This document shows positions 6,593-62,875 of a stretch of DNA of 64,000 nt, piece by piece. The position numbers and the translations under genes were made by a program. This DNA comes from Candidatus Zhuqueibacterota bacterium (GTDB lineage: Bacteria; Zhuqueibacterota; Zhuqueibacteria; Thermofontimicrobiales; Thermofontimicrobiaceae). The notes below the pieces were generated by a model that was given only the letters and a program-made list of their open reading frames with translations, was not told where the DNA came from and ran no database searches. Numbering within the stretch: the stretch's first letter is position 1; each line of letters opens with the position of its first letter. The stretch spans positions 1 through 64,000 of the forward strand of contig JBMOPW010000014.1 in the NCBI GenBank assembly GCA_049322915.1, written 5' to 3'.

Positions 6593-6595
6593 CTT

Positions 6596-6611: not shown

Positions 6612-6626
6612 ATAACTGGATTTTTT

Positions 6627-8507: not shown

Positions 8508-9205
8508 GAGAATTGTTTCACGTGAAACAAACCAAATCGACAAAAATAGTGGACAAGCTGTCGCTCCTTAAAATAGCGTCTGCGAAGACTGGCCTCGATT
8601 GGTCATTAGAAGCGGATAGCCGATTTGTAAAATTCATCAAGCTTATTCACGAATGGAACGCTCGAACAAATCTTGTTTCCCGTTTGGATGAATCACATTT
8701 GATAGATAGACATATTATGGAATCAATCGCCGTCCTGTCTGCTGTCGATATTGCTTCTGGCTCGAAGGTCGTTGATGTCGGAAGTGGGGGTGGGTTTCCG
8801 GCTTTGCCAGTTGCCTTTATGCGTGAAGATATCACTTTTGTTCTTGTAGAGTCCAAGCGTTTGAAATCTTTATTCCTCAAAGAGGTCGTTCTGGCGCTTG
8901 CATTAAAAAATGTGCAGGTTATTAATGAGCGTATCGAACAATTGGATAAGTTGAAACAATGGAATTCATTTTTTAATTTTTGCTTTAGTCGTGCAGTTGC
9001 AGATGTGGATATTGTTTATGACTGGATTAAAAACATTTTAACACAAGATGGTCTGTATATTGCCTGGAAGGGTGGCGATGTACAAAATGAAATTGACACC
9101 TTTCACAAGCGATATCCGGAAATATTTTTAAAAAGAATTGAGATGGATGAGCGGTTTGTTGATAAAGAAAAGAAAAGGTGTTTTATTGTTGTTTTGAAAA
9201 AATGA
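8504..9205 (+). CDS. rsmG: 16S rRNA m7G527 methyltransferase RsmG (GidB)
   Basis: WNARTNLVS, DVGSGGGFP, LVES, SRAV and KG motifs. ATGA overlap with mnmG; start not certain. Confidence 0.93.
   Translation: MRELFHVKQTKSTKIVDKLSLLKIASAKTGLDWSLEADSRFVKFIKLIHEWNARTNLVSRLDESHLIDRHIMESIAVLSAVDIASGSKVVDVGSGGGFPALPVAFMREDITFVLVESKRLKSLFLKEVVLALALKNVQVINERIEQLDKLKQWNSFFNFCFSRAVADVDIVYDWIKNILTQDGLYIAWKGGDVQNEIDTFHKRYPEIFLKRIEMDERFVDKEKKRCFIVVLKK
8514..8529. promoter_or_regulatory. parS: parS centromere site (perfect consensus)
   Basis: TGTTTCACGTGAAACA at the mnmG/rsmG junction; it reads FHVKQ in the rsmG frame. Confidence 0.95.
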
Positions 9206-9219
9206 AATGGAGGAAAAAA

Positions 9220-10131
9220 GTGGTTGCGAATCTATTTGATGAATTAAAAAACCTAGTCACTGAAACAGTGAATCCTGAAACGCGGGAGATTGATTCAAAA
9301 CCTATTGAGGAAATTTTAAAGATAATAAATAATGAAGATAAAATAATTCCTCACATTATTGAAAAAGAAATACCCTATATTGCAAAGGCAGTTGAGATAG
9401 TTGTGTCTGCGTTCAGGGCAGGTGGGCGATTGATTTATATCGGTGCTGGGACAAGTGGCCGACTTGGGGTCTTGGACGCCTCGGAGTGTCCACCCACTTT
9501 CGGGACTGATCCTGAAATGGTTCAGGGTATTATCGCCGGAGGGTATGCTGCGCTGACTCGCGCTCAAGAGGGGGCCGAAGATAAAAAAGAGGCGGGCGCT
9601 AAAGATTTGATGGCCCTGAATTTTAATAAAAATGATGTGGCCTGTGGTATTGCTGCCAGCCGCAGAACGCCGTACGTGATTGGCGCCATCGAAAAAGCAA
9701 AAGAAGTTGGTGCAAGGACAATTTATATCACCTGCACCCCACGCGAAGAGATGAATTTAAATGTCGATGTTGCTATTTGTCCTGTCGTTGGACCCGAAGT
9801 TATCATGGGATCAACCCGGATGAAGGCCGGTACCGCACAAAAACTTGTTTTGAATATGATTACAACATCGTCAATGATTCGGCTTGGAAAGGTGTATGGA
9901 AATTTGATGGTCGATCTACAGATGACTTCGAAGAAGTTGGAAGAAAGATCCAAGCGAACTGTTATGTTGGTCACTGGCGTGGAATATGAACAAGCAGCGA
10001 AAGTGCTGGAAGCGGCTGATGGCCACGTAAAGACTGCTTTGATTATGATATTAAAAAATGTTGATAAAAAGAAAGCACAGGAACGATTACGCTTAGCGGA
10101 TGGTTTTGTGCGCACAGCCCTGGAAAATTAA
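9220..10131 (+). CDS. murQ: N-acetylmuramic acid 6-phosphate etherase
   Basis: GAGTSGRLGVLDASECPPTFG and GSTRMKAGTAQKLVLNMITT motifs. GTG 9220 follows a GGAGG RBS. Confidence 0.96.
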   Translation: MVANLFDELKNLVTETVNPETREIDSKPIEEILKIINNEDKIIPHIIEKEIPYIAKAVEIVVSAFRAGGRLIYIGAGTSGRLGVLDASECPPTFGTDPEMVQGIIAGGYAALTRAQEGAEDKKEAGAKDLMALNFNKNDVACGIAASRRTPYVIGAIEKAKEVGARTIYITCTPREEMNLNVDVAICPVVGPEVIMGSTRMKAGTAQKLVLNMITTSSMIRLGKVYGNLMVDLQMTSKKLEERSKRTVMLVTGVEYEQAAKVLEAADGHVKTALIMILKNVDKKKAQERLRLADGFVRTALEN

Positions 10132-39400: not shown

Positions 39401-40845
39401 CCGTGACTTCCGATGGTGTGAAAGACATCAAAGCGAATATGCAATTGCCGAACACATTCCTGTTTGCAACGGATGTCAAGCCAACCCAATCTGTGGAACA
39501 GGGCGAAACAATTCAATGGCGCGTTATTGCAGCGCCCGATTCGATGTCCCATGCCACGCTCAAGGTCACCTGCTGGGGCGATGATGAAAATGATGCGACG
39601 ATCCGCGTGGACGCCGCGCCGGTACAGATTGCCTTCAAGGTGGTGCGCCGATTTGAAGCTGTCGTCGACGCCAGAATCATTTCTCCACCGGAGGCGACTG
39701 ATAATGCCGTATCAGTAAATCAGGAATTCTTCATTCAGGCAGCGCTGCAGAATATCGGACAGGCCCCGGCAGTCGGGACTTGCACCTTCGAATTGTCGCT
39801 GCCGGAAGGCTACGTCGCCCTGAATCCTTTGGCTCAAACAGTTCAACCCACTGAAAACGTATTGTGGAAAGTGAAAGCCCCGGCAACGGCGCTGCTTGCA
39901 AAATCCATCGAGGTGAGAGTGCCGCCAAACCAGGGACCGGAAGACAACAACGCCGGAAAAGAAATTCATTTCTGGCTTGAAAAACGCGGCGACAATATTT
40001 CGATTATCACCAATCAGAAGACCGTTGTCGTGTCCAAACTGCCGAACCGTACTCCGAACGCGATCGTCAAAGGACAGCGAAATGTATCCATGCTGGGCCT
40101 GAGGATATTCAATCGCAGGGAGGATGAATATTCCAATAAGATTGTGTTGACCGGTCTTGAAGTGCGTTTGAAAAATAGACTGGGACAACCGATTGATCAG
40201 CCAGGCCATGCTCTATCCAGAATCGCGGTGACCAGCTACAGTGATGCGGGCAAGGTGTATGGCAGCGTCACTGATTTCGCTGCCAGTAGCCTCATCCCAA
40301 TTTATCTGGCCCTGCCGGATACAATTTATCCGGATGAGGCGGATTCTATCGACCTGGTCATTGATATCGCCCAGTCGGCGAGCGCCACAGATATAATGCT
40401 CAGCCTGGAAGCAGATTCGTCCATTTTAATTCTTGAGGCCAACACCCTGAATCAGCCGCAACTGACGGATTTGAGCGGGCAGACCGGCGCTGCGCTGGAA
40501 TTGGAGTCGGATTTCGCCGTCGTGCTTGGAGATAATTTGAAACAAACCTTCATGAATTATCCGAATCCGTTCGGAAGCCCGGATAGAAAGACCACGACCA
40601 TCACGTATTATCTGAAGGAAGACACCGATGTCGATATCAAGATCTACACACTGATTGGGGAACTGGTGTGGTCGCGATCATACAGGGCCGGCGAGAGGCA
40701 GGCTCGACAGGGAATTCATGACGGCGATGTGATCTGGGACGGGACGAATGACAGAGGCTACAAAGTATTGAATGGCGTGTATGTTATCTATTTCAAATCA
40801 GCGAAGGGCGAAACAGCAATGACAAAGGCGGCTGTTATAAAATAG
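27472..40845 (+). CDS. giant (4457 aa) secreted Ig-like repeat surface protein with FlgD-Ig/T9SS-type C-terminal sorting domain
   Basis: Signal peptide; 23 repeats of about 97 aa; further CARDB-like repeats; C-terminal NYPNPF...IKIYTLIGELV...WDGTNDRGYKVLNGVY. Confidence 0.9.
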   Translation: MTSIKGALLLILLGLSFSSIYGGDITSFTVSPADNKAGESNIYTFSFTTSLTGNGTDVGIPATGRIAITFPAGFDVSEIELAQFTGSSLGDFSSIVIAGNEVTLVRDGTGAAIAGNTAVGLKVGVIGNNTTANIYSVNMETQRSDETIIDSGTSSQFTVIHNSLASFSIDTINNQIAGAGFIIVIYARDEYGNRVNSFSNTATLTDLTGTISPGVTMSFSTGRWSGSVMITKAHAANTITVTSENKAGVSNQFVVNPGTLHHFVFEMITSPQTAGSPITLQIIAKDSHENTVTGFAGSATLSDNTNTINPISTGAFSMGQWSGTVTITKKQKDVIITAAYNGVSDQTNPFNVNASTVDHFQIQTITQQTAGTPFHLEIYARDVYNNQVDQFTETVDISDLTGTISPVISGEFIGGYWAGNVTVTGIRTNNIITVERTANGTQSGSSNGFNVVHNSLDHFTIDPIPTSQTAGKSFNISMSARDAYNNVVSGFSGTASLSDLTGTISPAISGNFDHGTWSGNVTITQSQTSDKISATSGSKTGSSNTFNVNPEVVHHYRFEAVDSPKNAGQNFTITITAEDIYNNRVTTFNNSVDLSDPTGTINPATSGNFSSGQWTGQVAITESRSDITIAANRNGIVGESNTFNVNPASLHHFVIATVGTKAAGVPFTITVTAQDIYNNRASEFSGTVSIQDISGSISPVSSSAFDMGQWSGDVTIVQVTTNDRITVTNLAGAETGNSNYFDIVAGNIDHFDVSSIVSPKTAGSSFTVTVTAKDANGATVTDYTGTANLNDLTGTLSPKVTTNFEDGEWSGSLSITKSYANDKITVTGAGKSGSSNEFNVQANTLDHFTFGTITSPKTAGTGFIISIEARDMYENLVTSFSSAVGLNDDTGTIMPKTTTNFSGGQWSGSVTITRAQNDIDITANYNSVNGTSNKFNVQAGALNRFVIDNLSTQQANEAFSIIVTAQDNFGNVAKQFTGRVNMSDLTGTLSPTESGLFSDGRWSGSVLIPQAYENDIITVVNQAGSETGSSNMFDVVSSSVDRFVIDFIGQQKAGQAFTLSIEAQDNAGNIVTSFAGTVTIADLTGAISPKTSGNFSNGEWSGNVTITQSLSANQITVTSSGKAGTSNNFNVTHTDLDHFAFDQIESPKTAGQSFQIVITAEDVYNNRVTSYASTVNLTDDTGTLTPPASGAFSGGQWSGNVTITASGTDVVITANGGGKAGYSNAFNINPASLNRFVLETITTQAANGPFTIGITAQDNFGNTATQFTGKVNISDLTSTISPTESGTFDDGRWYGNVVITQAIENDVISVVNQGGSQSGTSNSFDVISSTVDRFVIGLLGNQIAGKGFTLSIEAQDNAGNLVTNFSGTASLSDLTGSISPATTGSFSGGRWSGTVRIIHAITGDQITVTSGGKAGNSNSFNVTHDVLDHFTFTPIGSPQTAGQAFQIKIVAEDVYENKVTSFTGAVNLSDNTGTLTPGVTTNFFGGEWQDNVQITSSGSDNLITATGAGKTGTSNDFNVNAAALNRFAIETITTQAAGEPFTIRLTAQDAFLNTTTQFSGKVNISDGTGTVSPTASGNFEEGRWSGNVVVSQAFVNNTISVVNQSGSQNGISNYFDVISSSVDRFVFNTISQQVAGASFIVSIQALDAAGNVVTNFNGTASLSDLTGTISPTTTANFSSGVWSGSVTITKSRTANQITVTSSGKAGNSNNFDVIPASLHHFTIENIPSPQGAGTAFQITVYAMDSYENRVTSFNTNASLSDGTGTISPTVTGNFSSGRWIGNVTITRSQTDVTITVTRDTKTGVSNIFNVSPGALSLFQISNISTQAAGEPFYITVTALDANSNVATHFSGTVNISDLTGTVAPTVSNNFDEGKWSGNVTISQVRTGNRITVVNSGGSQSGQSNTFDVISSDVDQFLISTITSPKTAGVPFEITITAVDADNNVVTSFTGTASLADQSGTIFPTTTTNFSQGRWTGNITLTKYWNNNNITVTSSGKAGISNNFTVLYNALDHYEFDTITSPQTAGTPFTIKITAKDFYNNIVYNHSTPVTLSDNSNTITPTVSGNFSSGSWSGAVTLTKRQNDVQITATGSGKTNQSNKFNVNSAVLHHFVLDTVTTQAAGEPFQLTVTAMDSYANIVSTFAGTVDISDLTGTISPQRSGSFLSGKWTGNVTITLVRISDRITVVRTGGAESGNSTYFDVVSSDVSEFTFDAITSPKTAGQPFTVRITARDDDNNVVNTFNGLLTLNDLTGTITPKTTGAFTNGIWSGDVKITKSYTNDKIVATGLGKSGESNLFTMNPGSLDHFIFQNITSPQRAGQSFEITVIAKDSMENTVTNFAYTANLSDNTGTISPTTTTNFTNGAWSDFVRITKKQNDVFITASRLNETGTSNLFNVNAGNLASLKVMDAAGGKGQEIGDKTITLDDKISMYAAGFDSFGNYSRDVFANWTASGTLDAPTPAQGTHTVFDPVAPGTAGKIRADSTGLLADSTGNISVGSIAYVKIRTAPNGVGIELGNTTITADENLALYCAGYDAGNNYVGDMSVQWSSKGTLVPAVFDTGSVINFMPSKAPASGKIYAVHPTAADDSTGTIVVNPGVPVGIIVLTPTPAVIPATGTSSSVVVSDIIRDAELNVIAKNTQFTVTATLGTLTTTDVNPLLPNIQIAANDSGKIQFTLQSTTAGGTAYISVSSVNGSATGNTTVMLSNLNIVSVTSTSFSVSQGQTSVPVDLVVENLSASTISNLASGLVFTGPAPLFENRNADFPSVIRTDGITSIPSGGIRTLKFLVTVSANARTDSVTIDGWISGLINSVAVNDTFALAPWKWVVQTPPILKITRISSLLTEVSQGRTGVNVSMTVLNQGQATANVTLDTLSFWSVNLSKSVTGEYQIIPSMTNPQTIPGTNGRAKFDFTVNIGSAATLGQVIVNGEIRGTDANSGALKTDNSADTTHAWVVQNAPIVGITGFYPSQLQVTKSQTVPWSLTMIVANNGGTAVRLDSARTSFLLGGTDVSAEYTVSNPIRFVKSGTNLLAGGTVDTLKYIVTKTGASVGQLTIRGMMYLRDMGTGNPISDETYSGVLVQEPAQLRIVTILPSQTSVTRNQGQDWFVRVVLNNEGGSEISIDTNVANTFIRFSTGNDFVIRQPDSLSNGGLSLEAGTVDTLVFTIDGAGTTPGNCIISSQVWGWQTTSGDSTIATFTRTAPILVQEPAKLRILSVVSKAPNFPNVNKAQVFPVHVTLENNGDDEVANAYAKLTSSGNSIGDSLSLHFQNIPGNGGKKEQILSIKADSLATQPELFQVAISRAFAQNTNEPAGITRELAVDSTETVIIQNPARFQITKTVMPDSILASQVASWKIKLVVANSGQAGTVLEMPGADDITIKVNDVIQRDYFIEPPTALQGGGLELAGGSTDTLIYTVSITGKEAGSAAMEAIVQSNDKNDQHVLIAPGRYDFTIRSSAAVQLFKTEAICFNYDGEKGLVNRGQVFPIRVSVQNLGRKSVRDVIVQLTTSGNSHLASNQLTIDSINYNEIKYADFQITADSAAVNLNELFTSEVLSAIEYDTGFPAVIDNSGDSRARIAIHDSARLQMSAWTETGDSVYTISQQFTVNVQVANLGELPAGVDESGLIGLFVPESYRIIVGEDTLENNHVLSFLPGEIQQFSILTPEVASGPDSLFVSLLNTPRDKNINQRAQVARGQDTILVRTEASNILYSTSVVAPDGALDKIVSTHQLFRIQSSIRFSGNLTNVEAILKLPDDIGQPQYSFQFHSGLRDTVKDIASHQPVLWDIVAPDARDEQFRNFEVTISATEKGNPVRLLFRDSVNVKAVNRARLNLNAEITSPEGAREGRLTVGQNFEIKATVSNMGDAATFGQGFLKMNLGSAGFDFADTSETHVKPFAIDTAVVWNLKAPAEVTSLSYITVVYEDKPNDENTGMDAWTNEKDAASISVETVEAGDLSLEIFIQGPEGAKDSVLSSYQEFVIGATVTSDGVKDIKANMQLPNTFLFATDVKPTQSVEQGETIQWRVIAAPDSMSHATLKVTCWGDDENDATIRVDAAPVQIAFKVVRRFEAVVDARIISPPEATDNAVSVNQEFFIQAALQNIGQAPAVGTCTFELSLPEGYVALNPLAQTVQPTENVLWKVKAPATALLAKSIEVRVPPNQGPEDNNAGKEIHFWLEKRGDNISIITNQKTVVVSKLPNRTPNAIVKGQRNVSMLGLRIFNRREDEYSNKIVLTGLEVRLKNRLGQPIDQPGHALSRIAVTSYSDAGKVYGSVTDFAASSLIPIYLALPDTIYPDEADSIDLVIDIAQSASATDIMLSLEADSSILILEANTLNQPQLTDLSGQTGAALELESDFAVVLGDNLKQTFMNYPNPFGSPDRKTTTITYYLKEDTDVDIKIYTLIGELVWSRSYRAGERQARQGIHDGDVIWDGTNDRGYKVLNGVYVIYFKSAKGETAMTKAAVIK
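27952..34659 (+). repeat. 23 tandem Ig-like repeats of about 97 aa (about 291 nt), arranged as (ABC)x7 + AB
   Basis: Consensus HFxxxxIxxxxTAGxxFxIxIxAxDxxxNxVxxFxGTxxLSDxTGTISPxxxxxFxxGxWSGxVxIT...GxSNxFxV, counted by hand. Confidence 0.9.
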
Positions 40846-51327: not shown

Positions 51328-53940
51328 TCACTGAAAGAAGATCGGTGCAAAGCCCGTGAAATTCCGGTCGAAAGAAGCTTTCGGGCGGGAGAGATTTTCA
51401 AAAAGCAACGACGCTGAATAGCTGTAGGAAATGAGATAGTCAGACATCAGAAAGGAAAGCGTCCGATAGTCTTCAGTCTGCGGCGCTGGCGGCTGAGCTA
51501 ACAATGTCTCAAAGGGAAGATAACCCAACAGGCCATCCGGGATAATAATGAGGCGATGGCCGTACAGGTATGATTTTACGGGCGAGATTAAACAACAATA
51601 AAGCGTATGAGCGGCTATGCTGTAATCAGTAAAACTTTGTTGCAGTAATCCACTTCGCATTCGGTCCATTGATGCGGTGAAGCTATCATCGATGGAAATT
51701 GACCGTATTTCGAATGTAGTTTTGGTGATTGTAAAAATGAACAGCGTGCTATCGCTGAGGTAATACTCGATGATTCCTGTGTCTGAATCCAGTATCTTGT
51801 CCTGAATTTGTTTTGCGGTGGCGTTGGCGGTTTGATATGTTAAATTGTAATAGGCAGGGTAGTTCAGTTCGAAGGTATTGACAAGGCTTTCATAGTTTCG
51901 TTTTAACTGAAATAGCCTGTTTTGCAGTGACCTCACTCTTTCGCTATCTGCATCGGTTCCCTTTTGTGTTTCATCAAACAGGAGCTTGTCCGTGAATGAA
52001 AGATCGATTTTCAACTGTCGTTCAGTGTCCAGAAGGCTATCCGGGATGCCGGCGAATTTCCTGGCGTTGGATTCGATGAGCGCCTGATGCAGCGCGCCGG
52101 ACTTACTTTTCTCGGCAAAGGAGAATGCAACTTCTTTCAAGTCGTGCGCATGGGTGATGGTGTACAGCTCAAACACACTGGTAATTGCCTGACCGTAGAT
52201 GGAATGCATTTTTTCGCCCAGGAATAATTTCAAATTCTCTGATTTATAGCCGGTTCGAATGTGTTCAATGAGATCGGAAATTAAGGTGTACGTTACAACG
52301 GATGCCTCCAGATTTTCGATATGACTTCTGTCGTCCAAATATAATTCATTGAACAGCTCCGCTTTTCGGGTCAGGATATCCAGCAGTCTGGTCTCCTCGT
52401 TGAGCTGTGTGAGAGGAGGATTGACATAAACATTGTCGGAATCGAACCCTGGAAAAAGCGCGTGCAAGGCGCGTTGCAAACAGGATAGCGCTTTCCTGAT
52501 CCGATGTTGTCGGTGATAGACTTCAGCGATTTGCTGATACGCTTCTGCAATGAGCGGATGATTGTTGCCCCAGATACGTTGACTCAGGCTCACGGACTTA
52601 TTGAGATAATGAAGCGCTATGTTAAAATCGCCCAGATCTGTATAGAGAATTCCCATATTGTTGTAAATAATTGCCATGAGTGAATGCTGCTGTGTTGAAA
52701 GCTGCCTGGCCATGGAGAGCGCCTGCCTGTAATACTCAATCGCCCGATTAAAATCCTTTTTCAGCGAATAAATATTTGCAATGTTGAGCTGGCAGCGGAC
52801 AATATCCGGGTGAACCCGTTGCTCCATGCGCAGTTGCACGTTAAGGGATTGCTGGTAGTAATGAAGCGCCTCATCGTACATCTCCTTGTTTTTAGAGATT
52901 ATTCCCAGGTTGTTGTACAACGATGCAATTATCGGATGGGTGTCGCTAATCGTCACCATCACCAGCGATAACGATTTCTGAAAGTAAGCCTGCGCGTCTT
53001 CGAGGTTGCCTTTTCGGAGCCAGATAGTACCCAGATTCAGGTAATTTCCAGCCAGCGATGGGTGATTGCTGCCAAGTCTGTTCTGCACAATGCGGATGGA
53101 TTTTTCATAGCACTCAATGGCGCGGTCATAATCCCCTTTGGTGAAATGAAGCACGCCTAGGTTGAGGTAGCTGTTGGATACGTCCGGGTGGTTCTCCCCG
53201 ACTGCCTCCAGCCGGATGGCAAGTCCCTTTTGATAATAGGCCATCGCATTCTCGAAATCCTCTCTGGCAAGTGCGAGAATACCTAAATTGACATAACTGT
53301 CAGCGACCAAAGGGTGCGTCTGTTCATAGACTTTTTTTCGGATGGCTAATGCATCTTCATAAAATTCAGCAGCCTTGTCATACTGACCATAAAAATAGTT
53401 GACAATGCCCAGTCCGTGATAGCTATTCGCCAATTCTTCATCGTGGGCAGAATCGGTTTTTTTCAGTAGGCAAATTGCCTCGTGAAAAGCGCTTTCAGCC
53501 GCGGCTAAATCACCGCGCTTCTGAAAAATTATGCCGCGGGCGTTGAGGATTTTTACAGCCGGAATTTCATTCGTCGAAGTGAAAAGGGCGAGAATATGGG
53601 ATGCGCTGTCCACCTGGCTTTTTGCATCTTCATAGCGGCCCGATTTCACGAAGTTTGTGCTCTTGCCGCAGAGGCAATCGATTGCTTTTTCCCATTGCTC
53701 CTCTCGGATAAGTTGGTATAAAGCCAGATCATAATAATAATTAGAACTGTCGTAGAAGGCGGCGGTATGCAGCTTAGCCGCTCGCTGTAAACATTCAACC
53801 GCGGTAATCACGTCAACCCGGGTCTGATGCGACTGAAGCATCGGTACGTTTCTTTGATTTTTTATAGAATAGACGAGTCCACTGGCAAGAATGACGGTGA
53901 GCAAAATAGCAGTATATTTCCTGTAGTGTGGCTTTTTCAT
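51328..53940 (-). CDS. membrane-anchored TPR protein carrying only the N-terminal, non-catalytic part of a CHAT domain
   Basis: N-terminal TM; about 9-10 42-aa TPRs (HPxxAxSYxNLG); AFSFAEKSKS, IIEYY, LIIIPDGLLGYLPFETL and ISYSYSAS motifs; ends at FTGFAPIFFQ with no His/Cys dyad. Confidence 0.88.
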   Translation of the reverse strand: MKKPHYRKYTAILLTVILASGLVYSIKNQRNVPMLQSHQTRVDVITAVECLQRAAKLHTAAFYDSSNYYYDLALYQLIREEQWEKAIDCLCGKSTNFVKSGRYEDAKSQVDSASHILALFTSTNEIPAVKILNARGIIFQKRGDLAAAESAFHEAICLLKKTDSAHDEELANSYHGLGIVNYFYGQYDKAAEFYEDALAIRKKVYEQTHPLVADSYVNLGILALAREDFENAMAYYQKGLAIRLEAVGENHPDVSNSYLNLGVLHFTKGDYDRAIECYEKSIRIVQNRLGSNHPSLAGNYLNLGTIWLRKGNLEDAQAYFQKSLSLVMVTISDTHPIIASLYNNLGIISKNKEMYDEALHYYQQSLNVQLRMEQRVHPDIVRCQLNIANIYSLKKDFNRAIEYYRQALSMARQLSTQQHSLMAIIYNNMGILYTDLGDFNIALHYLNKSVSLSQRIWGNNHPLIAEAYQQIAEVYHRQHRIRKALSCLQRALHALFPGFDSDNVYVNPPLTQLNEETRLLDILTRKAELFNELYLDDRSHIENLEASVVTYTLISDLIEHIRTGYKSENLKLFLGEKMHSIYGQAITSVFELYTITHAHDLKEVAFSFAEKSKSGALHQALIESNARKFAGIPDSLLDTERQLKIDLSFTDKLLFDETQKGTDADSERVRSLQNRLFQLKRNYESLVNTFELNYPAYYNLTYQTANATAKQIQDKILDSDTGIIEYYLSDSTLFIFTITKTTFEIRSISIDDSFTASMDRMRSGLLQQSFTDYSIAAHTLYCCLISPVKSYLYGHRLIIIPDGLLGYLPFETLLAQPPAPQTEDYRTLSFLMSDYLISYSYSASLLFENLSRPKASFDRNFTGFAPIFFQ

Positions 53941-53941
53941 A

Positions 53942-54751
53942 TCATTCCACTGTGTGCGTGCGAAATTTTTTGATCAGCAGGAAGGCTGAAATGATGATGA
54001 GGACAATGGCTGGAATAATCCATTGCCAGTGATGACGCGCTGTACTGAGTTCCAGGGGAGATGTATCGCCGGTCAGGACAAAGCCAGCCCAGTAGTAGGG
54101 CGCTGATTTGATCTCTCCGGCATGGCGAAGATAGTTCAGTTTTGCGGTGCGAAGAGCAGCATCTTTGCTGGAACCCCGAATGAGTTCGGCATAGAAATCG
54201 GCCATGATGTGAGAAGTTGATTTGTCATCGACCGGCCACAAGCTCATCGCGATGCTCGGGCACCCTGCGTACATGAAGCTTCGCGCCAGGCTCATGATGC
54301 CTTCTCCCTGGACAAGTTTGCCGCTGCCGGTGTTGCATGCGCTTAAAACAGCCAAATGCGCGTTGAGTTCCAGATTGTAAAGCTCATAAGCGAACAGCTT
54401 ACCGTCCTCGGATAATGTGTCTTTCGGCGAGAAGGCTAAATAGCTGTACATCGGTTGAAGTTCATTGATAATCGTATGCGTTGCGAGATGGAGGATGCGC
54501 GACTTCGGGGCGTATTTCTTAAAATTCGCTTCGGTGGCCTGACGGCGCAGGAATACGTCTCCGCGAAGCAGATTGTCGATATTGCTCACCTCTTGTTCTG
54601 TCCAGGTCAAATCGTGAAGAGTTGCCTGGAGAGGCTCGGACAAAGGTTGATGAAAGGAGAGTTGCTCCTGAGCGAATAGCGAGTAATTTCCGGCAAAGAT
54701 CATTGCCAGAGCCAGCGCGAGCAGGCGCGTGTTAATCATTGGCATTTGCAC
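53942..54751 (-). CDS. exported catalytic C-terminal half of a CHAT (caspase-like) protease with C-terminal TM anchor
   Basis: Signal peptide (SLFA/Q); TEQEV, ATEANFK, LHLATH (His), VLSACNTG (Cys), SLWPVDD and PYYWAGF motifs; TM WIIPAIVLIIISAFLLI-KK. Confidence 0.9.
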   Translation of the reverse strand: MQMPMINTRLLALALAMIFAGNYSLFAQEQLSFHQPLSEPLQATLHDLTWTEQEVSNIDNLLRGDVFLRRQATEANFKKYAPKSRILHLATHTIINELQPMYSYLAFSPKDTLSEDGKLFAYELYNLELNAHLAVLSACNTGSGKLVQGEGIMSLARSFMYAGCPSIAMSLWPVDDKSTSHIMADFYAELIRGSSKDAALRTAKLNYLRHAGEIKSAPYYWAGFVLTGDTSPLELSTARHHWQWIIPAIVLIIISAFLLIKKFRTHTVE

Positions 54752-54888
54752 ACGAAGTAATGAAAATTCATAAGTGGGTCATTTCAGAAAAATGCTCACC
54801 GCGAGTCGATCTTGCGGCATCTGGAAGGAAACTGAATGTTAAACGCCCTGAAAAATTGAATTGTTTCTCACCCGAATGATGGTCCCGG

Positions 54889-55662
54889 CTATCGCTTTGT
54901 AAGGAGGTTCAAAATTTGTTCGCTCTGCTTTCTGTATTTGCTTGCCGCAGATACTGATTGAAATACCGCCATTGCCTCTGGAATTCGTTCCAGCCTTACC
55001 AGCGCCAGCCCCTGGTACCATTGCGCAGGATCGCGGTAGGGAGAACTGTGGGTTTTCATAATAGCCTCGAAGTGAGGAAGCGCCAGTTGTGGTGTGTCGT
55101 TGATTAGCTGGCACATCCCGGCATAAAAATGGGCGCCGGCGTTTCCTGGCTCGTGCGCTAATAGCTGATCCAATAATTGCTGGCAGGCGGCAATCTGATC
55201 TTTTTCATAGTTCAACATCGCCTGCAAGAAGAGACCCTGACTGGACTCTCCCCTGACGATCGGCGTGATATTCGGGTAAGCCTCGAAAAACTGATTGAAA
55301 ATTCGTTGGTGTGTCTGGTTTGTTTTTAGCAGAAGAAAAGAAGTCGCCAGAGCAACGATAACAAGCGCTGCCATTCCGTACCGCAGCATTGGGTTGCGCC
55401 AGCCTGATTTGGTGCGGCTGAGCCGTTGAGAGACCGAAGTCTGGAGGGCAGCTATGGCAGTGCGGAACTGTAACTCCCCGGCGCTTTTCTGAAATCCCTC
55501 GATGGCATCAGCGCAAAATGGGCAGTGGCGGATATGCAAGTCAATTTTCTCTTTCTGCTCAGGCCGAATGTTGTGTCTTGAATATGAAATGAGTTCATTC
55601 AGCGACAGACAATCCCCAACCGTGGACGCTTTGTCCTCGCAAGTAACATTTTTTTCATTCAT
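54889..55662 (-). CDS. zinc-finger (ZAS) transmembrane anti-sigma factor with periplasmic TPR domain
   Basis: CLS...HIRHCPFC (HxxxCxxC), one TM, then TPR-like repeats (AHFYAGM, AQWYQGLA); overlaps the ECF stop codon by 8 nt. Confidence 0.85.
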   Translation of the reverse strand: MNEKNVTCEDKASTVGDCLSLNELISYSRHNIRPEQKEKIDLHIRHCPFCADAIEGFQKSAGELQFRTAIAALQTSVSQRLSRTKSGWRNPMLRYGMAALVIVALATSFLLLKTNQTHQRIFNQFFEAYPNITPIVRGESSQGLFLQAMLNYEKDQIAACQQLLDQLLAHEPGNAGAHFYAGMCQLINDTPQLALPHFEAIMKTHSSPYRDPAQWYQGLALVRLERIPEAMAVFQSVSAASKYRKQSEQILNLLTKR

Positions 55663-56254
55663 CTTTTCGGAATTCCCTATCTTGAAGTAAAATATTCTTT
55701 AGGTTCCGCCTTCCATTCTGGATATGACTCTTCACTTTCCCGACCTCAAATCCGGTCGTGTCAGCGATATCCCTGTATGATTTCTTTTCGAAATAAAAAA
55801 GCAAGAGGCATTGGCGCTGCGCTTCAGTCAGTTGATTTAATGCGGCATGTACTTTCGATTCGATATCGCTTTGACCACTATTAAGAGTATCAAAGTCTTC
55901 AAATTCCATAAAAATATTTTTAAATTTTTCAGTTTTTTTCTGCTGAATATTTTCCTTCGTTTTATTTTTTCGAAGGTTATAGAGGCAAAAATTTTTTGTA
56001 ATTGAATACAACCAGCTACTAAAATTGGTCACCGGTTGTATTTTCAGCTTGGTCATGACTTTTTCGAAGATTTCCAGAACCGCATCCTTGCTGTCTTCCT
56101 CATTCCCGAAATATTTCAGGCAGGCGCCATAAACAAGGTGACAATAGCGCTGAAACAGCTCTTCAAAAGCAGCAATATCGCCGTGATCCCTGAACATCTG
56201 AACCAGTTCACGATCAGTTTTTTTCGTCATGAAATTTTTAAAATAGAATCGCAC
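55655..56254 (-). CDS. ECF RNA polymerase sigma factor
   Basis: Region 2 (AFEELFQRY...DSKDAVLEIF...FSSWLYSITKN) and region 4 (SYRDIADTTG...VKSHIQNGRRNLK). Confidence 0.95.
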   Translation of the reverse strand: MRFYFKNFMTKKTDRELVQMFRDHGDIAAFEELFQRYCHLVYGACLKYFGNEEDSKDAVLEIFEKVMTKLKIQPVTNFSSWLYSITKNFCLYNLRKNKTKENIQQKKTEKFKNIFMEFEDFDTLNSGQSDIESKVHAALNQLTEAQRQCLLLFYFEKKSYRDIADTTGFEVGKVKSHIQNGRRNLKNILLQDREFRKDE

Positions 56255-56447
56255 TGATTGTTCTCCGTTTTCGCTGGCGCATGAATTTAGTATAATAAAA
56301 AATTAGTCTCGATGCAAGATTTAAAAATAAATTTATGGAAAATCACTTTATCTTGCATCTATATAATGCATCCTAATTTTTAGCGAACAACCGTCTATAA
56401 AATAAATAGTACGGTATCAGTTCGAAATAAACTGACGGAGGAGAACC

Positions 56448-59400
56448 ATGTCACAAAAATGCTTTCATTTTTTGCTGGCAGCCTGTCTGCTGTTCCCGAT
56501 AGATGGCTACGGATTTGATAAGCAGGCGAAAACAAAAGCATCATCCACGCTGATAAAGCGTGATTCAGCCGTGATTGACGCCAACCAAATTTCAATGGTG
56601 GTGATGAACAATGGTACATTTGGCCGCGATCCGATGTCAGGAAGCGGAGCATTTTTCTTTCCAAAAGGAACGGATAAAAAATTACTCTATACGGCAGGAA
56701 TAGAAATCGCCGGAAAAGTGAACGGAGACATTCGAACTGCCTGCGCAAATTATAATGTCGAATTTCAGCCAGGAAAAATTTTATCGACCGGAGTGGCAGA
56801 CGATCCTGATTTGGAGAAATATCGAATTTACAAAATCAAACCGGGCGATTCCGCAGATCCGGCAAGTCCGAATTATAACATCGATTATGCCGAGTGGCCT
56901 GTCGAGGATGGCGCGCCGGTGGACGCGTCGGGAAGTCCGCTTATCCTCGGCGACCAGACGATGTGGCTCGTCATGAATGATGCAAATGAAAGCCTTCACT
57001 CCGGCTGCTATAACACAGAGCCGTTCAACCTTGAATTGCAGTTGCTGGTCTGGGCGTTCGACGATGAATCGACTGCAATGGGTAAAACTGTTTTTATGCA
57101 ATACACGCTGATCAATAAAAGCCAGAATTCTATCGAAGATGCCTATGTCGGGATTTGGTCTGACGCAGATGTGGGCGACTCCTTTGATGACGCCCTTGCC
57201 TGCGATACCACGCTGGATTTGACCTATGCCTACAATGGAGATGATAGCGATATGATGTACGGGACTGATATCCCGGCTGTTGGGATATGTTTGCTGCAAG
57301 GCCCTGCTGTGCCTTCCATCGGCGAAACAGCATTTCAATTTTTGCATATTCCAGTTTTGAACGCGCGGAATTTAAACATGACCTCAACCAGCGTCTATTA
57401 CTGAGCGCACGAACGATTCAGGGATCCTGAATATACGAGTCGCGGTGCGATTCAATTGTATGGCAATTTTGAAGGATTGGATTTTTTAGGCGATCCAACA
57501 GTCGATTTGTCTACTGGAGAGAATTCTCCTTTTATGAACAGCGGGAATCCTGTTTTTAATACCGGCTGGCTGCAGGACCTCTATATGAAGCCGTGCGATT
57601 TATATTTCCTGCAGGGCAGCGGTCCATTCTCACTCGCGCCTTTGGATACGCAGCGCGTTGTTTACGCAATCATTGTTGGTCATGGAGAAACACGACTGGA
57701 GAGCGTACTGGAATTGAAGCGCAATACAAATTTTATCAGGGATGTCTTTCGCAATGAATTTCAGATGAAAGCCTGGACAGAAACCGAGGTGCGCGTACCC
57801 TCCCAATCCAGGATGGAAATGGCGATTCGGTCAAAGGTGGAAACTGAGGTTGGTACTCAGTCCATTCAGGCGGATTTGCTCACGTACAGCGATTCCCTCG
57901 TCCGAACCATTGATCTGTACGACGATGGGACCCATGGCGATGCTCTAGCCAGCGATTATATTTTTAGCCATGCGCTGACGCTTGATGCGTTGCACCAGGC
58001 GCTTTACATCAACCTTCGAATCAAAGCCGTAAGCGGGAAAGAATATTCTTTCTTGCACGCTGCTGAAGACATCGCTGCGATTTATCCCGATGTTTTTATC
58101 TCTGAAATTGATGTGGCTGCGGATCATTTGAACAATGATGGAAAAATCAACCCCGGCGAGAATGTCCGATTATGCTTCCAGATTAAAAATGAACTGCCTT
58201 TTCCCATCACGTCATTGAATGTGCTGGTGCTACTGGATACGGCTCTTGTACAGGGCAATCCGGAGCATTTCTTTTTTAAGAATGTCGGGATGAATGAATT
58301 TGCGGAGATGGACTATGATCCAAATGACGAGTCGAGCTTTTATGAATTGGATGTCTCTCCGAATTTCCTGGCAGAAAATCCGTCAAATGACAGGATTGAT
58401 TTGAATGTCAAGTTCTATGTCAATGAACATCATATCTGGGATCAGAAATTCACCGTCTCATTGTCGGTTCAACCGCTGGAGCATATTCCCAATCTGGTAA
58501 TCCCTGCCCATATTTCCGGCTATAGCAGCGCCACGTTTGAAATCAGCGTCATCGATCCTGATCAGCTTACCGGGCATACCTATGCAATTACTGTGAGTGA
58601 TTCCATCAATGAGAACGGCGATCCGGGCTTCAATCTCATCGATCAAACATTGGGAGATACTTTGCTCAAACGTCACGAATTGCCGGACACCTATGCCTAC
58701 AATATTCCTATCACAGATGGATTTAAAGTGACCAGAGCCGTTCTGCCCGAAGTAGAACTCAGCGGGCATTTCGAGTCTTATTCCGGAGATGATTTGCGGC
58801 CATTTTATGGGATTAGCTACGACGCCAGTCTGTCGCCATCGATGGTGACATTCGGCGACGCGATCCCTGAACATTATTGCCCGGTGGAAATCGAATTCAC
58901 CAATCGCGTTGATTCCAGCGGTGTGGTTGGCGCTCTGCTTGGCCAGAGTGGATTTCAGCACACGGTATCTCCGCTGCACGGCATAGTCGGATTTTTCCCC
59001 TGTGGAATCAATGTCTGGAAAATTGTCAATAATCAAAGAGCCGGACGGTTGAACATCATCTTCCAGGAAGAATCGCCGTCGCTGCCAGCCTACGATGAAA
59101 CCTGGACTCCCGGCGAATGGCTTTATATCATGGCCAGCAATTACGATGCAACCGGGCAATTGTATCTGGGATTGACGGAAATTCCAATGGGCAGTCTGCT
59201 TTATAAAATGAATCTTTCTTTGAGAAGAGCGGAAAGCGCCGCCGGCATCGGGGATAAATTATATTTTGAACGTTGCTTTCTACCCACAGTTGACGATATG
59301 TGGTTATTCTCTCCCACAAACATTCTGGATGATGGGAATCGGCTTCCGACGCGATTTGAGTTGTACCAGAATTACCCCAATCCATTCAATCCCACGACCA

Positions 59401-59627
59401 CAATTCGATTTTCGATTCCGAAGCAATCACAGGTCAGTTTGAGAGTTTACAACATCCTGGGACAGGAGGTCGCGGACCTGTTCAATCGTATTGCTGGGCC
59501 CGGCGACTATGCTGTGAACTGGAATGGAAAAGATCGGTTCGGGCGGTCAGTTGTTTCAGGTATTTATTTTGCCAGATTTGAGACAAGTGCCGGGACGAGG
59601 TTGATAAAAATGGCGTTGATTCGATAG
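56448..59627 (+). CDS. secreted protein with T9SS/FlgD-type C-terminal domain; single 1059-codon frame interrupted by an in-frame TGA at 57402-57404 (recoded or pseudogene)
   Basis: ORFs 56448-57404 and 57456-59627 are in the same frame with only TGA between them. Homology to 59654-62875 runs across the stop. Signal peptide, GGAGGAG RBS, choice-of-anchor-X-like LYDDGTHGD, and C-terminal QNYPNPFNP. Confidence 0.8.
57402..57449 (+). other. in-frame UGA plus candidate bacterial SECIS element
   Basis: TGA, 11 nt, then ATTCAGG-GAT-CCTGAAT (57416-57432); lower stem CGCAC (57406-57410) with GTGCG (57445-57449). Confidence 0.45.
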
Positions 59628-59653
59628 TTATAAAAAATCAAGGGAGAGAAAAA

Positions 59654-62600
59654 GTGAAATACAAAATATTTCTTCTGATATTAGCCTTTCATTCATTTGT
59701 TTTCTCGGAAGAAAATAAAATCAATTCGCTGAAGAAACCTGCGGTCTACTCCTCCAAATATTTTGACGTCAACAGAATTGTCTGTTCGGTGCATAACGAC
59801 GGCATTATTGCCAGGCACCCCATCAGCGGGAACAGCGATTTTAAATTTGACGACGATTACCTGGTTTACACCTCCGGCCTGTGGCTGGCCGCCAAAGTGA
59901 ACGGCGCAGTCAGGGCTTCGGCGGCAGATTTCAACACGGACTGGATTGGCGGCGCCATCGATGAATTTGGGAATCCGTTCGGCAAGGAAGACTCCACGTT
60001 CCGCGTTTACAAAATTTCCCGCGGGGATAATGCGGCCACAAACCCGGATTACGCGCAGTGGCCGTCGCAGTTGGGAGCGCCAACCGATGCCCAGGGCAAT
60101 CCGCTGATCTTGGGCGATCAAACACTGTGGTGCAGTTTCACGGATGCGTTCGTCGATGAAAGGATTTGGTACAATATCTGTCCACCGTTAGGCGCAGAGG
60201 TTCATTTAATGGTTTGGGGCTGGAACGAAGTTGATAACGCAATTTTTGTTCGATATGAAATTATCAATAAAAGCGCTGCAATATGGGAAGATACATACTT
60301 TGGTATGTATTCGGATCCTGATGTGGGTGACGCCAACAACGATTTAACCGGGAGCGACAGCACGTTGAGCCTTGTTTACTGTTACGATAATGAAAAGACC
60401 AATTATTATAATAGTAATTATTCTGTGGGGTATGTTTTGTTGGAATCCCCACTAATTCCTTCGACGGGCGATACAGCATTCACCTGGTGGGGCAGAAGAT
60501 TTGATTTTCAAAATGCGCCAATTTACGCGCCGCGCATAGAAAAACACGATTCATATGGATGGGGAGAGGTTAGTTATACATCGAGTGAAACCGCTACCCA
60601 AATTTACAATCGGCTGCAATGTTTGAGTTACAAGGGAGAGCCTGCCATTAATCCAGTAACAAATCTACCGACAAAATGGACTTATTCGGGCGAACCTGTC
60701 ACAGAGACTGGCTGGATCGATAATATTTATCCTCCACGGGACAGGCGAATGATGCTGTCCACAGGGCCGGTCACACTGGCTCCGGGCGATACAGCCGCAA
60801 TCACACTGGCGATTATGGCGGTTCAGCGCAACAAAACAATGGATACGATCGTGGATGTGAAGAGCAATGCTGGGGCGGCGCTGGAGGCCTTTCAAAATGG
60901 CGCCGGCTTATATTCGGAAAAAAAATATGCACCGCCTGGTCAGCAGGGGCTGCTCGTACCAATTCGATTGCTGAATTTTCGGGAATTAGAGAAGCTGGAA
61001 TTTACAATTCGTTGGGAAAAGGAAAAACTGATTTTTCGTGACATCGAACCGGTCAATCGAGCGAAGAATTTTTCTGTGAACTCGGATCAGATCAACCCAG
61101 GAACGACGCGCGTTGAATTGGTGAATCCTGTCTCGGAAGCACTTTCTGTCGGAAATGGAGAGATATTTCAAATCGAATTTGATGTTGCCGTGAATGGGGA
61201 AAGCGAGTTGGTTGATTTTCGAATTAGCAACACGAGCGCAATGGACATCGATGGAAATTTACTAAATCTGAAATCAATCACTAACACAATCGAGATTGAG
61301 CAAATGCATCCGCCGCCGCGGTTGTACACGCCGCCCAATGGTCACTATCTGGATGGAATGAATGTTCAATTCTCCTGGTCGCGAGCCGGAAAAGATAGTG
61401 AAAACTTCACGTACCTGAAATTCGAAAATGATACATGGTCAAAAGTGACAGTTTTTGATACGACCCTGACCATGCCCATGAGGGAATTTGTTTTCAATTC
61501 GAACAGGCCGGATCCAATTGGCTGGTATGTGGCAGTGATGGACTATTCCGAGCCTCTGCTGTCTGTGGAAAAATATTATTTCAGCGTCCCTTCTGTTGAG
61601 GAGTTGAGTTTTGCGCGCCAAATAGTGGAATGCGATATTTCAGATACGACCATTGCCTGGCCGAGAGTGGAAAAATTAGCCATTCAGCTTCCCTACTTTT
61701 ATCTCATCAAGGCGATAGATTTAGGAACGGAGCGTTATGAGCTAACCGTACTTCGACTTTCTCAAAATAATTTCCAACTGGTGAATAAGCAGGATCTGTC
61801 TCCGTTTCTTTTTGATGGGCAATTGATCGTTTCGGGAGACAGGGCATTTTCGTATTATAACAGCCTCATTTACATGTATACCATCAACCAAAATCAGCAA
61901 TTCGTTTTTGATAAATATGCGACCGTGGATTCTCCCATCGGTGTTCTTTTGAAAAATGAAGAGTATTTTTACATTCTCTCGAAGGAAAATTCAGCGCCTA
62001 ACATATTAATCTATAAAGTGAATGAATGGGGAGACCTGGTAAAACTGAGTGAAATTTCCCTGGCTGGCTGGTCCGATGAAACAAGAGAGAGCTCGGGAGA
62101 AGCCATTCGCCTGAAAGACGGGCGGTTGTTTGTGGCCTACGGCGACTGGGGAATTTTCGATGTGTCCGATCCGGGTGCGCCACAGTTATTGGTGCGGTGC
62201 GATATTCCTGATGAGGCAGCGTCCATTGACTACGAAGATGGCAAGGTATATGTCGGTGGTGATAATTACTGGTTGGGTATTTATGACATAACTTCATCTG
62301 AAAATCCGCTGCTTGTTTATAGCGAAACGGTCGAGGATTCGTGGAATGATTGGGCCAAACATCTATCTGTTTATGAAGGAAAGGTATACCTGCATGACCG
62401 ATGGAGAATGCAGGTTTGCCATTATGAACCGGGCAGGGGATTCGTCATCGATGGAATTTTCAATCAGCGCGAATTAGTAAAAATGTTTCAGGATCGAATC
62501 TATGTTATCGACTGGCGATGGGATTGGCAAACGACAATCAGCATCTATGAAAACAGTTTTGTTTCTCGGTGTAATTCGAAGGAAAATGGGGATGCAGTGA

Positions 62601-62875
62601 AGTTCAATTTGGTACAAAACTACCCCAATCCATTCAACGACCGAACGCAAATACATTTTGATGTAGAGAGAACCGCCCAGGTCGCAGTGACGATTTACAA
62701 CATTCATGGCCAAAAAGTAAAAACGTTGCTTGCCGAAGTGAAAGCAGCCGGCAGCCATAGACTGGAATGGGATGGGAAAAATGATGCCGGGCGAACAGTC
62801 GCATCCGGGGTGTATCTGTGCGAGTTGCGCGCCAGTGATCGTTCCAGCATAAAAAAAATATTGCTTTTAAAATGA
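59654..62875 (+). CDS. secreted paralog of the upstream gene with cohesin-like and LVIVD-like propeller regions and T9SS/FlgD-type C-terminal domain
   Basis: Shared N-domain (YKISRGD...NPDYAQWP...GAP...PLILGDQTLW, SDPDVGD); FDVSDPGAP repeats; QNYPNPFN...WDGKNDAGRTVASGVY. Confidence 0.85.
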   Translation: MKYKIFLLILAFHSFVFSEENKINSLKKPAVYSSKYFDVNRIVCSVHNDGIIARHPISGNSDFKFDDDYLVYTSGLWLAAKVNGAVRASAADFNTDWIGGAIDEFGNPFGKEDSTFRVYKISRGDNAATNPDYAQWPSQLGAPTDAQGNPLILGDQTLWCSFTDAFVDERIWYNICPPLGAEVHLMVWGWNEVDNAIFVRYEIINKSAAIWEDTYFGMYSDPDVGDANNDLTGSDSTLSLVYCYDNEKTNYYNSNYSVGYVLLESPLIPSTGDTAFTWWGRRFDFQNAPIYAPRIEKHDSYGWGEVSYTSSETATQIYNRLQCLSYKGEPAINPVTNLPTKWTYSGEPVTETGWIDNIYPPRDRRMMLSTGPVTLAPGDTAAITLAIMAVQRNKTMDTIVDVKSNAGAALEAFQNGAGLYSEKKYAPPGQQGLLVPIRLLNFRELEKLEFTIRWEKEKLIFRDIEPVNRAKNFSVNSDQINPGTTRVELVNPVSEALSVGNGEIFQIEFDVAVNGESELVDFRISNTSAMDIDGNLLNLKSITNTIEIEQMHPPPRLYTPPNGHYLDGMNVQFSWSRAGKDSENFTYLKFENDTWSKVTVFDTTLTMPMREFVFNSNRPDPIGWYVAVMDYSEPLLSVEKYYFSVPSVEELSFARQIVECDISDTTIAWPRVEKLAIQLPYFYLIKAIDLGTERYELTVLRLSQNNFQLVNKQDLSPFLFDGQLIVSGDRAFSYYNSLIYMYTINQNQQFVFDKYATVDSPIGVLLKNEEYFYILSKENSAPNILIYKVNEWGDLVKLSEISLAGWSDETRESSGEAIRLKDGRLFVAYGDWGIFDVSDPGAPQLLVRCDIPDEAASIDYEDGKVYVGGDNYWLGIYDITSSENPLLVYSETVEDSWNDWAKHLSVYEGKVYLHDRWRMQVCHYEPGRGFVIDGIFNQRELVKMFQDRIYVIDWRWDWQTTISIYENSFVSRCNSKENGDAVKFNLVQNYPNPFNDRTQIHFDVERTAQVAVTIYNIHGQKVKTLLAEVKAAGSHRLEWDGKNDAGRTVASGVYLCELRASDRSSIKKILLLK

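Follow-up and report, generated by a model that had tools for sequence, protein, structure and literature searches.

We analysed 64,000 nucleotides of DNA from a Candidatus Zhuqueibacterota bacterium (positions 1 to 64,000 of contig JBMOPW010000014.1, assembly GCA_049322915.1; hereafter referred to as the window). Between positions 51,328 and 62,875, the genes for a sigma factor of the extracytoplasmic function (ECF) type, a putative anti-sigma factor with a transmembrane (TM) segment, and two polypeptides that carry parts of a CHAT protease domain, one of them together with tetratricopeptide repeats (TPRs), lie on one strand, divergently from the genes for two large proteins with sorting domains of the type IX secretion system (T9SS) (Table 1). 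An earlier note on this DNA had described the cluster as an ECF signalling module with a split CHAT protease, and the open reading frames (ORFs) that it listed were found where it had placed them. In the following, G000 denotes the genome of the window, the other G-numbers denote other genomes and the L-numbers denote loci.

Table 1. Features of the locus and of a related locus; coordinates are those of the window unless a locus is named.
Feature	Coordinates	Strand	Remarks
TPR + CHAT N-part polypeptide, 870 aa	51328-53940	-	signal-anchor TM, 7 TPR_12 stretches, helical region, CHAT N-part
CHAT C-part polypeptide, 269 aa	53942-54751	-	signal peptide, His (HLATH), Cys (SACNTG), C-terminal TM + KKFR
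Single-pass anti-sigma factor	54889-55662	-	CHCC zinc-type domain, TM, juxtamembrane motif, ~3 periplasmic TPRs (predicted)
ECF sigma factor	55655-56254	-	Pfam Sigma70_r2 41.4 bits and r4_2 51.8 bits
Second conserved element, TTGCAT-N17-TATACT	56289-56317	-	on the sigma strand
Candidate ECF-type promoter, ATGGAA-N14-GCATC	56335-56359	+	faces the secreted-protein operon
T9SS cargo gene, ~1059 residues, in-frame TGA	56448-59627	+	N-domain of no named family
In-frame TGA, probable selenocysteine (Sec) codon	57402-57404	+	motif YY-U-[AG]-H
Hairpin resembling a selenocysteine insertion sequence (SECIS), 7-bp stem, 3-nt loop	57416-57432	+	begins 11 nt after the TGA, z = -1.51
Paralogous T9SS cargo gene, 1073 aa, Trp at the Sec position	59654-62875	+	starts 26 nt past the first
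Three paralogous mini-ORFs, 18-20 codons	L125 (G115:C75) 7300-8010	-	MKVKTN[VI]KAG start, variable Cys-containing tails

The two CHAT polypeptides cover complementary parts of the CHAT profile (PF12770). The shorter one matches profile positions 97-289 with 171.2 bits. The longer one, whose start codon lies 1 nt past the stop codon of the C-part gene, opens with MKKPHYRK followed by a TM segment; its residues 776-849 match profile positions 3-69 (25.6 bits, cut-off 24), so that the CHAT N-part forms its extreme C-terminus, ending in GFAPIFFQ. The two proteins of the window aligned end to end with single proteins of G010 (1125 aa) and G005 (1132 aa), in which a signal peptide is followed by the CHAT C-part, a TM segment, a short basic loop, a second TM segment, the TPR array and the N-part (with a GFAPVNF end). 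The fused relatives are single proteins of 1004-1132 aa. In all four fused proteins scanned with Pfam, the first 340 aa matched the CHAT profile from positions 82-101 to 289 (165-186 bits) and the last ~320 aa matched it from positions 2-7 to 65-73 (26.7-34.2 bits), every one of these partial matches exceeding the Pfam cut-off; neither in the window nor in any of the four do the parts stand in profile-colinear order within one chain. These alignments indicate that the 'split CHAT' is a circular permutation, with the order catalytic C-part, membrane hairpin, TPRs and CHAT N-part. The earlier note was thus right that two genes carry one CHAT domain, and its simple split gives way to a permutation in view of the fused relatives.

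In the window and in a genome of the same genus (G001), the permuted CHAT is additionally divided within the cytoplasmic loop that joins the two TM helices, and a second split clade (L059, L060 and L061) is cut at the same loop. The catalytic His and Cys (in HLATH and SACNTG) are kept in all 14 aligned rows that contain the catalytic part. Between G000 and G001, the C-part is 60% identical, with proportions of nonsynonymous (pN) and synonymous (pS) differences of 0.26 and 0.77, and the N-part is 52% identical (pN 0.31 and pS 0.75 for the N-part polypeptide), pS being saturated in both comparisons. Because pN is far below pS in both halves and the catalytic dyad is conserved, the split form appears to be maintained rather than decaying. 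Sequencing or assembly error as the origin of the split was ruled out by the occurrence of splits in 5 genomes, and a frameshift fusion of the two CHAT genes was ruled out by the 38-nt gap in G001 and the overlap in L059 at the same loop. A quick tree of 45 CHAT C-parts placed the two split groups apart, with support of 99 and 100, the second nesting with fused forms; it needs 2 split/fused state changes, and a single change remains compatible with it. From the hydrophobic and signal-peptide-like segments and the positive-inside charges, read by eye, both CHAT parts and the TPRs are predicted to face the periplasm. By sequence search, the solved structure closest to the C-part was that of DdvA (8rot_B, residues 839-977; E 7.7e-7), followed by Csx29 chains (E ~2e-4); a profile of the CHAT N-half gave no match among PDB sequences. 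Our literature search turned up no publication describing a CHAT or caspase-fold domain that is circularly permuted or split in nature.

In one scan of genome contigs, 9 of the best 80 of 522 relatives, the window not counted, carried the permuted CHAT. A search with the fused protein of 1.84 billion representatives yielded 197,555 relatives at E <=0.001, and about 10 of the best 150 of these were colinear with the permuted order, the others being canonical. P0003, P0004, P0005 and P0007 matched the permuted form end to end, P0009, P0018, P0015 and P0010 matched it partially, and P0082 represents an N-half-only form. Of 34 canonical relatives, which run TPR, CHAT N-part and C-part, 31 show a hydrophobic segment within the final 60 residues, and tandem CHAT arrays were found at 4 loci. 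From these features we infer that the permutation arose by tandem duplication followed by loss of the front of the first copy and the back of the second; a duplication with such losses leaves exactly the order C-part, TM, TM, TPR, N-part. The two-gene form is possibly the first product of this route. In G115, an orthologous sigma/anti-sigma pair precedes a canonical, unpermuted TPR-CHAT of 1048 aa, which suggests that the permutation arose within a pre-existing sigma-linked operon. Elsewhere in the genome of the window, at G000:C14:95852-96670, a CHAT domain lies within an open frame of ~2829 aa, and similar open frames, of ~2750-2880 aa, recur across the relatives searched.

The sigma factor contains only the sigma-70 regions 2 and 4, in addition to matching the ECF superfamily model (NCBIfam sigma70-ECF, 89 bits, cut-off 42.9). 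It has 199 aa if the GTG at 56254 is used; alignments with the orthologues begin at residue 9, and the true start may be the ATG at 56230. The closest solved structures are ECF sigma factors of the AlgU/RpoE/SigE/SigW type. Orthologues with 44-70% identity were found in G001, G005, G010, G016, G115 and G120, and across the class, those at E <=1e-30 (including G120) are confined to 7 of the 125 genomes, or 6 of the 71 genera. The sigma module is therefore rare and patchy across the class.

The anti-sigma gene overlaps the sigma gene by 8 nt, and its product shows an H-x3-C-x2-C motif, one hydrophobic span and C-terminal TPRs. C18, H43, C47 and C50 are invariant in all ten orthologues, the window included, and make up a DdvA-like CHCC site. 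The reading of these two genes as an ECF sigma factor and a translationally coupled anti-sigma factor with a zinc-type domain, a TM segment and TPRs was borne out by the Pfam and NCBIfam matches, the overlap and the invariant CHCC. Just after the TM segment, F126, P130, N131, P134 and R137 are likewise invariant in the ten sequences; the juxtamembrane stretch that contains R137 is YFEPYPNTxPLxR[SG]-like. Every single Pfam TPR match in the anti-sigma factor scored below the gathering score, and a profile of the ten orthologues matched TPR structures. The chain stops at residue 257 after ~3 TPRs, the CHAT being encoded by separate genes. Between the anti-sigma and C-part genes lies a gap of 137 nt (54752-54888; 143 nt in G001), whereas in the fused-form relatives the genes are 40 nt apart or overlap. 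The gap may hold an internal promoter, and the ATGGAA-N14-GCATC motif described below has no copy there.

The sigma pair and the permuted CHAT were found together throughout. A sigma match lies 32-1019 nt upstream on the same strand in 9/9 permuted loci, as compared with 9 of 71 canonical TPR-CHAT loci with a sigma match within 3 kb; the sigma profile was built from nine sigmas of the module's kind, which makes the latter figure a lower bound. Orthologues of the anti-sigma factor lie between sigma and CHAT in all ten permuted loci when the window is included. The co-conservation of sigma, anti-sigma and CHAT that the earlier note had proposed to survey is thus seen in each of the nine other loci. 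The layout is not an assembly accident, because the same-genus genome (G001) shares the whole of it at protein identities of 40-80%. The divergent genes, on the other hand, differ among loci. The secreted family seen in the window is divergent from the module only in G000, G001 and G010; L045 has a T9SS cargo resembling rhamnogalacturonan lyase, L068 has unrelated genes, and G115 has peptides and an exporter. Since the triad stays while these genes differ, the comparison indicates that sigma, anti-sigma and CHAT form the conserved unit and that the output genes are plastic.

The earlier note had regarded the module as independent of CRISPR, and the surroundings agree with this for the window: the 64 kb contain no tandem repeats or repeat array, housekeeping genes flank the module, and cas1 is on a different contig. 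Neither Cas7-11 (gRAMP) nor Csx30 was found in Pfam and PADLOC scans of the locus and the window, no genome-wide search for Cas7-11 having been made. PADLOC reported only generic TPR models and no anti-phage defence families at the locus, whose neighbours are T9SS cargo and housekeeping genes rather than an anti-phage defence island. The window also holds, on the + strand at 27472-40845, an ORF of 4457 aa that matched no Pfam family at E <=1e-5.

The spacer between sigma and the first secreted gene (56255-56447, 193 bp) contains the sequence ATGGAA-N14-GCATC, which occurs on the divergent-gene strand in the spacers of G000, G001 and G010, with 14 inner bases that vary. The motif, its spacing and its orientation away from sigma are identical in 8 of the 9 other permuted loci (9/10 with the window), and the copy at 56335-56359 is the only exact match in the window. 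We presume a resemblance to ECF promoters, which have a GGAA-type -35 element. In G115, three copies point away from sigma, and ~100 nt on, each is followed by a ribosome-binding site, a mini-ORF and a hairpin (Table 1), which settles the direction of the motif. Downstream of the mini-ORFs lie genes for a C39-peptidase protein, HlyD and a C39-type ATP-binding cassette (ABC) exporter, and mini-ORFs and exporter together probably make up a unit for peptide export governed by the orthologous sigma. Where a genome lacks the sigma module, no motif was found upstream of orthologues of the first output gene; the motif thus belongs to the sigma factor and not to the cargo gene. These observations suggest that this sigma reads ATGGAA-N14-GCATC. 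As to the earlier proposal that sigma drives the divergent genes, a conserved ECF-like motif does face them, but the module does not include the cargo as a conserved component.

A second element lies on the sigma strand of the same spacer, and elements like TTGCAT-N17-TATA(C/A)T were found on that strand in G001, G010, G005 and L060. It agrees with the E. coli -35 consensus at 3 of 6 positions and was missed by a consensus scan; possibly it is a housekeeping-type promoter of the sigma operon. Consensus scans for promoters and terminators performed no better than with shuffled sequences (25 vs 18.7 and 14 vs 12.8, respectively), and Rfam gave no match in the window. Further matches of the motif in G010 comprise two inside coding regions, one at a contig end, and one ~300 nt upstream of a 1014-aa ORF without a Pfam match; no regulon could be derived from them. 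In the region ~20-330 nt upstream of the sigma gene of L059, L060 and L061, the motif on the divergent strand is followed ~190 nt on by a GC-rich hairpin and a T-run. No long ORF separates motif and hairpin, and the motif may serve a short transcript or a tiny ORF there.

The secreted proteins of the window are paralogues, with N-domains 37% identical over 288 aa and C-terminal tails 38% identical, and both end in the T9SS type A sorting domain (TIGR04183; 35.5 and 35.7 bits, cut-off 23). The genome has the corresponding machinery, including two PorU matches (868.7 and 818.5 bits) and many other sorting-domain ORFs. The N-domain matched no Pfam or NCBIfam family, and in the ESM Atlas it matched only unnamed 'hypothetical protein' clusters. 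Two paralogous secreted proteins had been proposed before, and the identities and sorting domains uphold this, except that the first had been listed as two ORFs and is one gene with a TGA. The two frames, 56448-57404 and 57456-59627, are the same, with the TGA between them and homology to the paralogue on both sides. At the same alignment column, TGA is present in 8 orthologues from 7 genomes (G000, G001, G008, G013, G004, G037, G005 and one G010 copy); 4 orthologues of the same class have a true Cys codon there, 2 have Asn, and the paralogue of the window has Trp. The genome encodes tRNA-Sec (63 bits; ARAGORN anticodon TCA), SelB (364.6 bits), SelA (561.6 bits) and SelD (408.4 bits); two SelD matches were obtained, and G000:C2:57472-58398, outside the window, holds an in-frame TGA, as in Sec-type SelD. 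The ratio of nonsynonymous to synonymous substitution rates (dN/dS) was 0.19 before the TGA and 0.16 after it, which points to purifying selection on the part after the TGA. Taken together, these sequence patterns make the first output gene very probably a selenoprotein gene. Another genetic code was ruled out, as TGA ends the CHAT C-part gene, and a sequencing or assembly artefact was ruled out by the presence of the TGA in 7 genomes. In L014 (G010:C16, ~1-9330, - strand), four paralogues of the secreted family stand in a row next to the module (C16:73841, 70771, 67477 and 64406), with the TGA only in the first.

The nearest known counterpart is DdvA of Myxococcus xanthus. According to its description (PMC11506125), DdvA is a single-pass anti-sigma factor with a CHCC zinc-type (ZAS) domain, its periplasmic domain is a TPR-CHAT, the protein becomes an RseP substrate when that domain is removed, and the authors propose, as an unproven idea, that the CHAT clips its own linker. 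The DdvA/DdvS system (PDB 8rot, 8rw5) and the locus described here have in common an ECF sigma, a CHCC single-pass anti-sigma, a periplasmic TPR-CHAT with a His-Cys dyad, and an RseP-type protease. The TPR-CHAT of DdvA is fused to the anti-sigma factor, however, whereas here it is separate, membrane-anchored, permuted and, in this genus, made of two polypeptides, and the anti-sigma factor keeps just ~3 TPRs. The output in that system is an island of CRISPR and of the cyclic oligonucleotide-based anti-phage signalling system (CBASS), whereas here it is T9SS cargo. The sigma factor shows no special closeness to DdvS, whose chains are absent from its matches at E <1e-5. In the literature searched, only the DdvA paper joins a CHAT domain, the periplasm and a sigma factor. 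Another CHAT-linked group, ECF54 of Actinobacteria, has CHAT and subtilase proteins in its genetic context (PMC8999054) and is described as being without an anti-sigma factor (PMC7826278); the present module shares the CHAT-domain neighbours but has a canonical ZAS anti-sigma factor and belongs to a T9SS-bearing lineage of the Fibrobacteres-Chlorobi-Bacteroidetes (FCB) type.

Other parallels are looser. The type III-E Craspase system (Cas7-11, Csx29 TPR-CHAT, Csx30 and RpoE) also ties a TPR-CHAT genetically to an ECF-like sigma. Craspase reportedly works in the cytoplasm, is switched on by guide RNA together with target RNA and has as its substrate Csx30, a soluble protein that binds sigma; the parts described here are predicted to be periplasmic, and no cas gene was seen in the scans of the window, so that the analogy is looser than that with DdvA. 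RseA/DegS/RseP resembles the proposed pathway in its periplasmic site-1 cut, RseP site-2 cut and sigma release, an RseP homologue being present here too, but where that pathway uses a PDZ serine protease, the candidate for the site-1 cut here is a cysteine protease of the caspase fold that the sigma operon itself encodes. Engineered 'reversed' caspases share with the permuted CHAT a swapped segment order in a caspase-fold enzyme. They are artificial, with the small subunit before the large one and a break at the subunit junction after the catalytic Cys; the natural break precedes the catalytic His (near CHAT profile positions 70-96), and a membrane hairpin sits where the termini used to be. 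Finally, the first output gene resembles selenoprotein genes of the E. coli fdhF type in its in-frame UGA, a candidate SECIS-like hairpin ~11 nt on, the Cys homologues and the presence of SelA, SelB, SelD and tRNA-Sec, and differs from them in encoding a T9SS cargo of ~1059 residues whose Sec lies in no redox motif that can be recognised (YY-U-[AG]-H, without a Cys close by).

The best explanation, to which we give a probability of about one half, is by analogy a DdvA/DdvS-like trans-envelope sigma switch built from separate proteins, in which the assembled periplasmic CHAT would be the site-1 protease of the neighbouring anti-sigma factor. The ECF sigma would be held at the membrane by the CHCC zinc-type single-pass anti-sigma factor. 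The CHAT parts, lying on two anchored polypeptides, would have to meet in the periplasm to form one catalytic domain, and a periplasmic signal sensed by the TPR parts would activate the assembled CHAT. This would then clip the anti-sigma factor near the invariant juxtamembrane Arg, and the RseP homologue of the genome (343.6 bits) would cut the TM helix of the anti-sigma factor. The freed sigma would transcribe from ATGGAA-N14-GCATC the operon of the two large T9SS-secreted paralogues, the first being a probable selenoprotein. The sequences compared show the gene architecture, the permuted and divided state of the CHAT, its linkage to the sigma pair, the motif with its direction and the Sec/Cys pattern; we infer the assembly of the CHAT halves, the cleavage of the anti-sigma factor and the recognition of the promoter by sigma. 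A further-reaching version, which we consider unlikely, would make the protease a natural split enzyme that has a catalytic domain only when its halves, on two separately anchored polypeptides or, in fused relatives, at the two ends of one chain linked through a membrane hairpin, meet in the periplasm, such that TPR-ligand-driven assembly is the signal-gated step that destroys the anti-sigma factor; this would be a proximity-controlled, caspase-type switch derived by tandem duplication and deletion from C-terminally anchored TPR-CHAT genes.

Several observations weigh against the proposed switch. The closest sigma/anti-sigma pair of G016 (47% and 29% identity) is followed by genes for a LacI-type regulator and a TonB-dependent receptor, and a close CHAT was searched for in this genome, which is 74% complete, and not found; in G013, a more distant pair is followed by an S8 peptidase. 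Both of these CHAT-less pairs have the hydrophobic-hydrophobic-R-[GS] motif after the TM segment, so that it is not specific to CHAT. The counts of linkage and motif overstate independence, the loci being relatives. L045 lacks ATGGAA-N14-GCATC, and within the one window the motif is not significant (2 matches with <=1 mismatch vs 2.48 expected), its weight lying in its conservation across loci. Autoregulation is usual for ECF sigma factors, and it is not seen here, as none of the motif copies is directed towards the sigma operon. Cleavage at site 1 by a CHAT is unproven even for DdvA (PMC11506125).

The main rival, a serious though less probable reading, holds that the CHAT is co-expressed with the sigma pair but cuts or senses some other periplasmic thing, such as exported peptides, cargo or an invader's protein, or binds the TPRs of the anti-sigma factor as a co-sensor, a DegS- or Prc-like protease or no proteolysis at all freeing the sigma. 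The anti-sigma factors that have the same juxtamembrane motif without a CHAT (G016) or beside an S8 peptidase (G013) speak for it, as does the G115 module, which adjoins the three mini-ORFs and the C39-ABC/HlyD exporter, so that an exported peptide could be the substrate or ligand of the protease; to this is added that cleavage of an anti-sigma factor by a CHAT is not known from any system. On the other side, the sigma/anti-sigma pair is the only partner kept with the permuted CHAT (9/9) while the output genes change, and the fused DdvA shows that one polypeptide can hold both functions. The persistence of the triad beside unrelated divergent genes also counts against a role tied to the cargo.

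Two further readings concern the integrity of the genes. The two CHAT genes could be the decaying, inactive remains of a rearranged TPR-CHAT gene, since a division of the caspase fold before the catalytic His is unusual and the N-part match is weak (25.6 bits). This reading is disfavoured, and we regard it as very improbable: two genomes differing at 40-48% of residues each keep the two ORFs intact, with pN of 0.26 and 0.31 against a saturated pS of ~0.75, at least 10 further proteins show this order within a single intact ORF, the catalytic dyad does not vary, and each half has its own export or anchor signal. Similarly, the TGA at 57402 could be a true stop, leaving 56448-57404 and 57456-59627 as two genes or a pseudogene. 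The hairpin after it is short and of unremarkable stability, G008 and G013 have just a 5-bp stem with an 18-nt loop in their TGA forms, and the consensus fold of the 8 TGA forms is weak (RNAalifold, -0.99 kcal/mol, 1 compensatory pair). Nevertheless, 6 of the 8 TGA forms have a hairpin of 5-7 bp that begins 8-11 nt past the TGA, as against 0 of 4 Cys forms, with modest z-scores (-0.07 to -2.33 in the former, +0.20 to -0.61 in the latter). Together with the same-column TGA and Cys codons, the homology across the site, the low dN/dS after it, the full Sec machinery with a TGA-containing SelD, and a 241-nt contig of another study that spans the site unchanged, at a low depth of 2.7, this renders a true stop very improbable.

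With protease, substrate and sensor on separate genes, the locus would make the DdvA idea of CHAT-driven site-1 cleavage directly testable. DdvA itself does not allow this, since one chain unites the three roles and no signal for it is known. The two protease pieces can be expressed, mutated and mixed independently, with the candidate promoter as the read-out. The locus family also illustrates the textbook route to a permutation by duplication, through the C-terminal TM anchors of 31/34 canonical relatives and the tandem arrays at 4 loci. The first output gene, which gene callers cut in two at the conserved TGA, adds a large T9SS-secreted family to the candidate selenoproteins. The module thus offers a natural system for testing whether caspase-like proteases turn on sigma factors.

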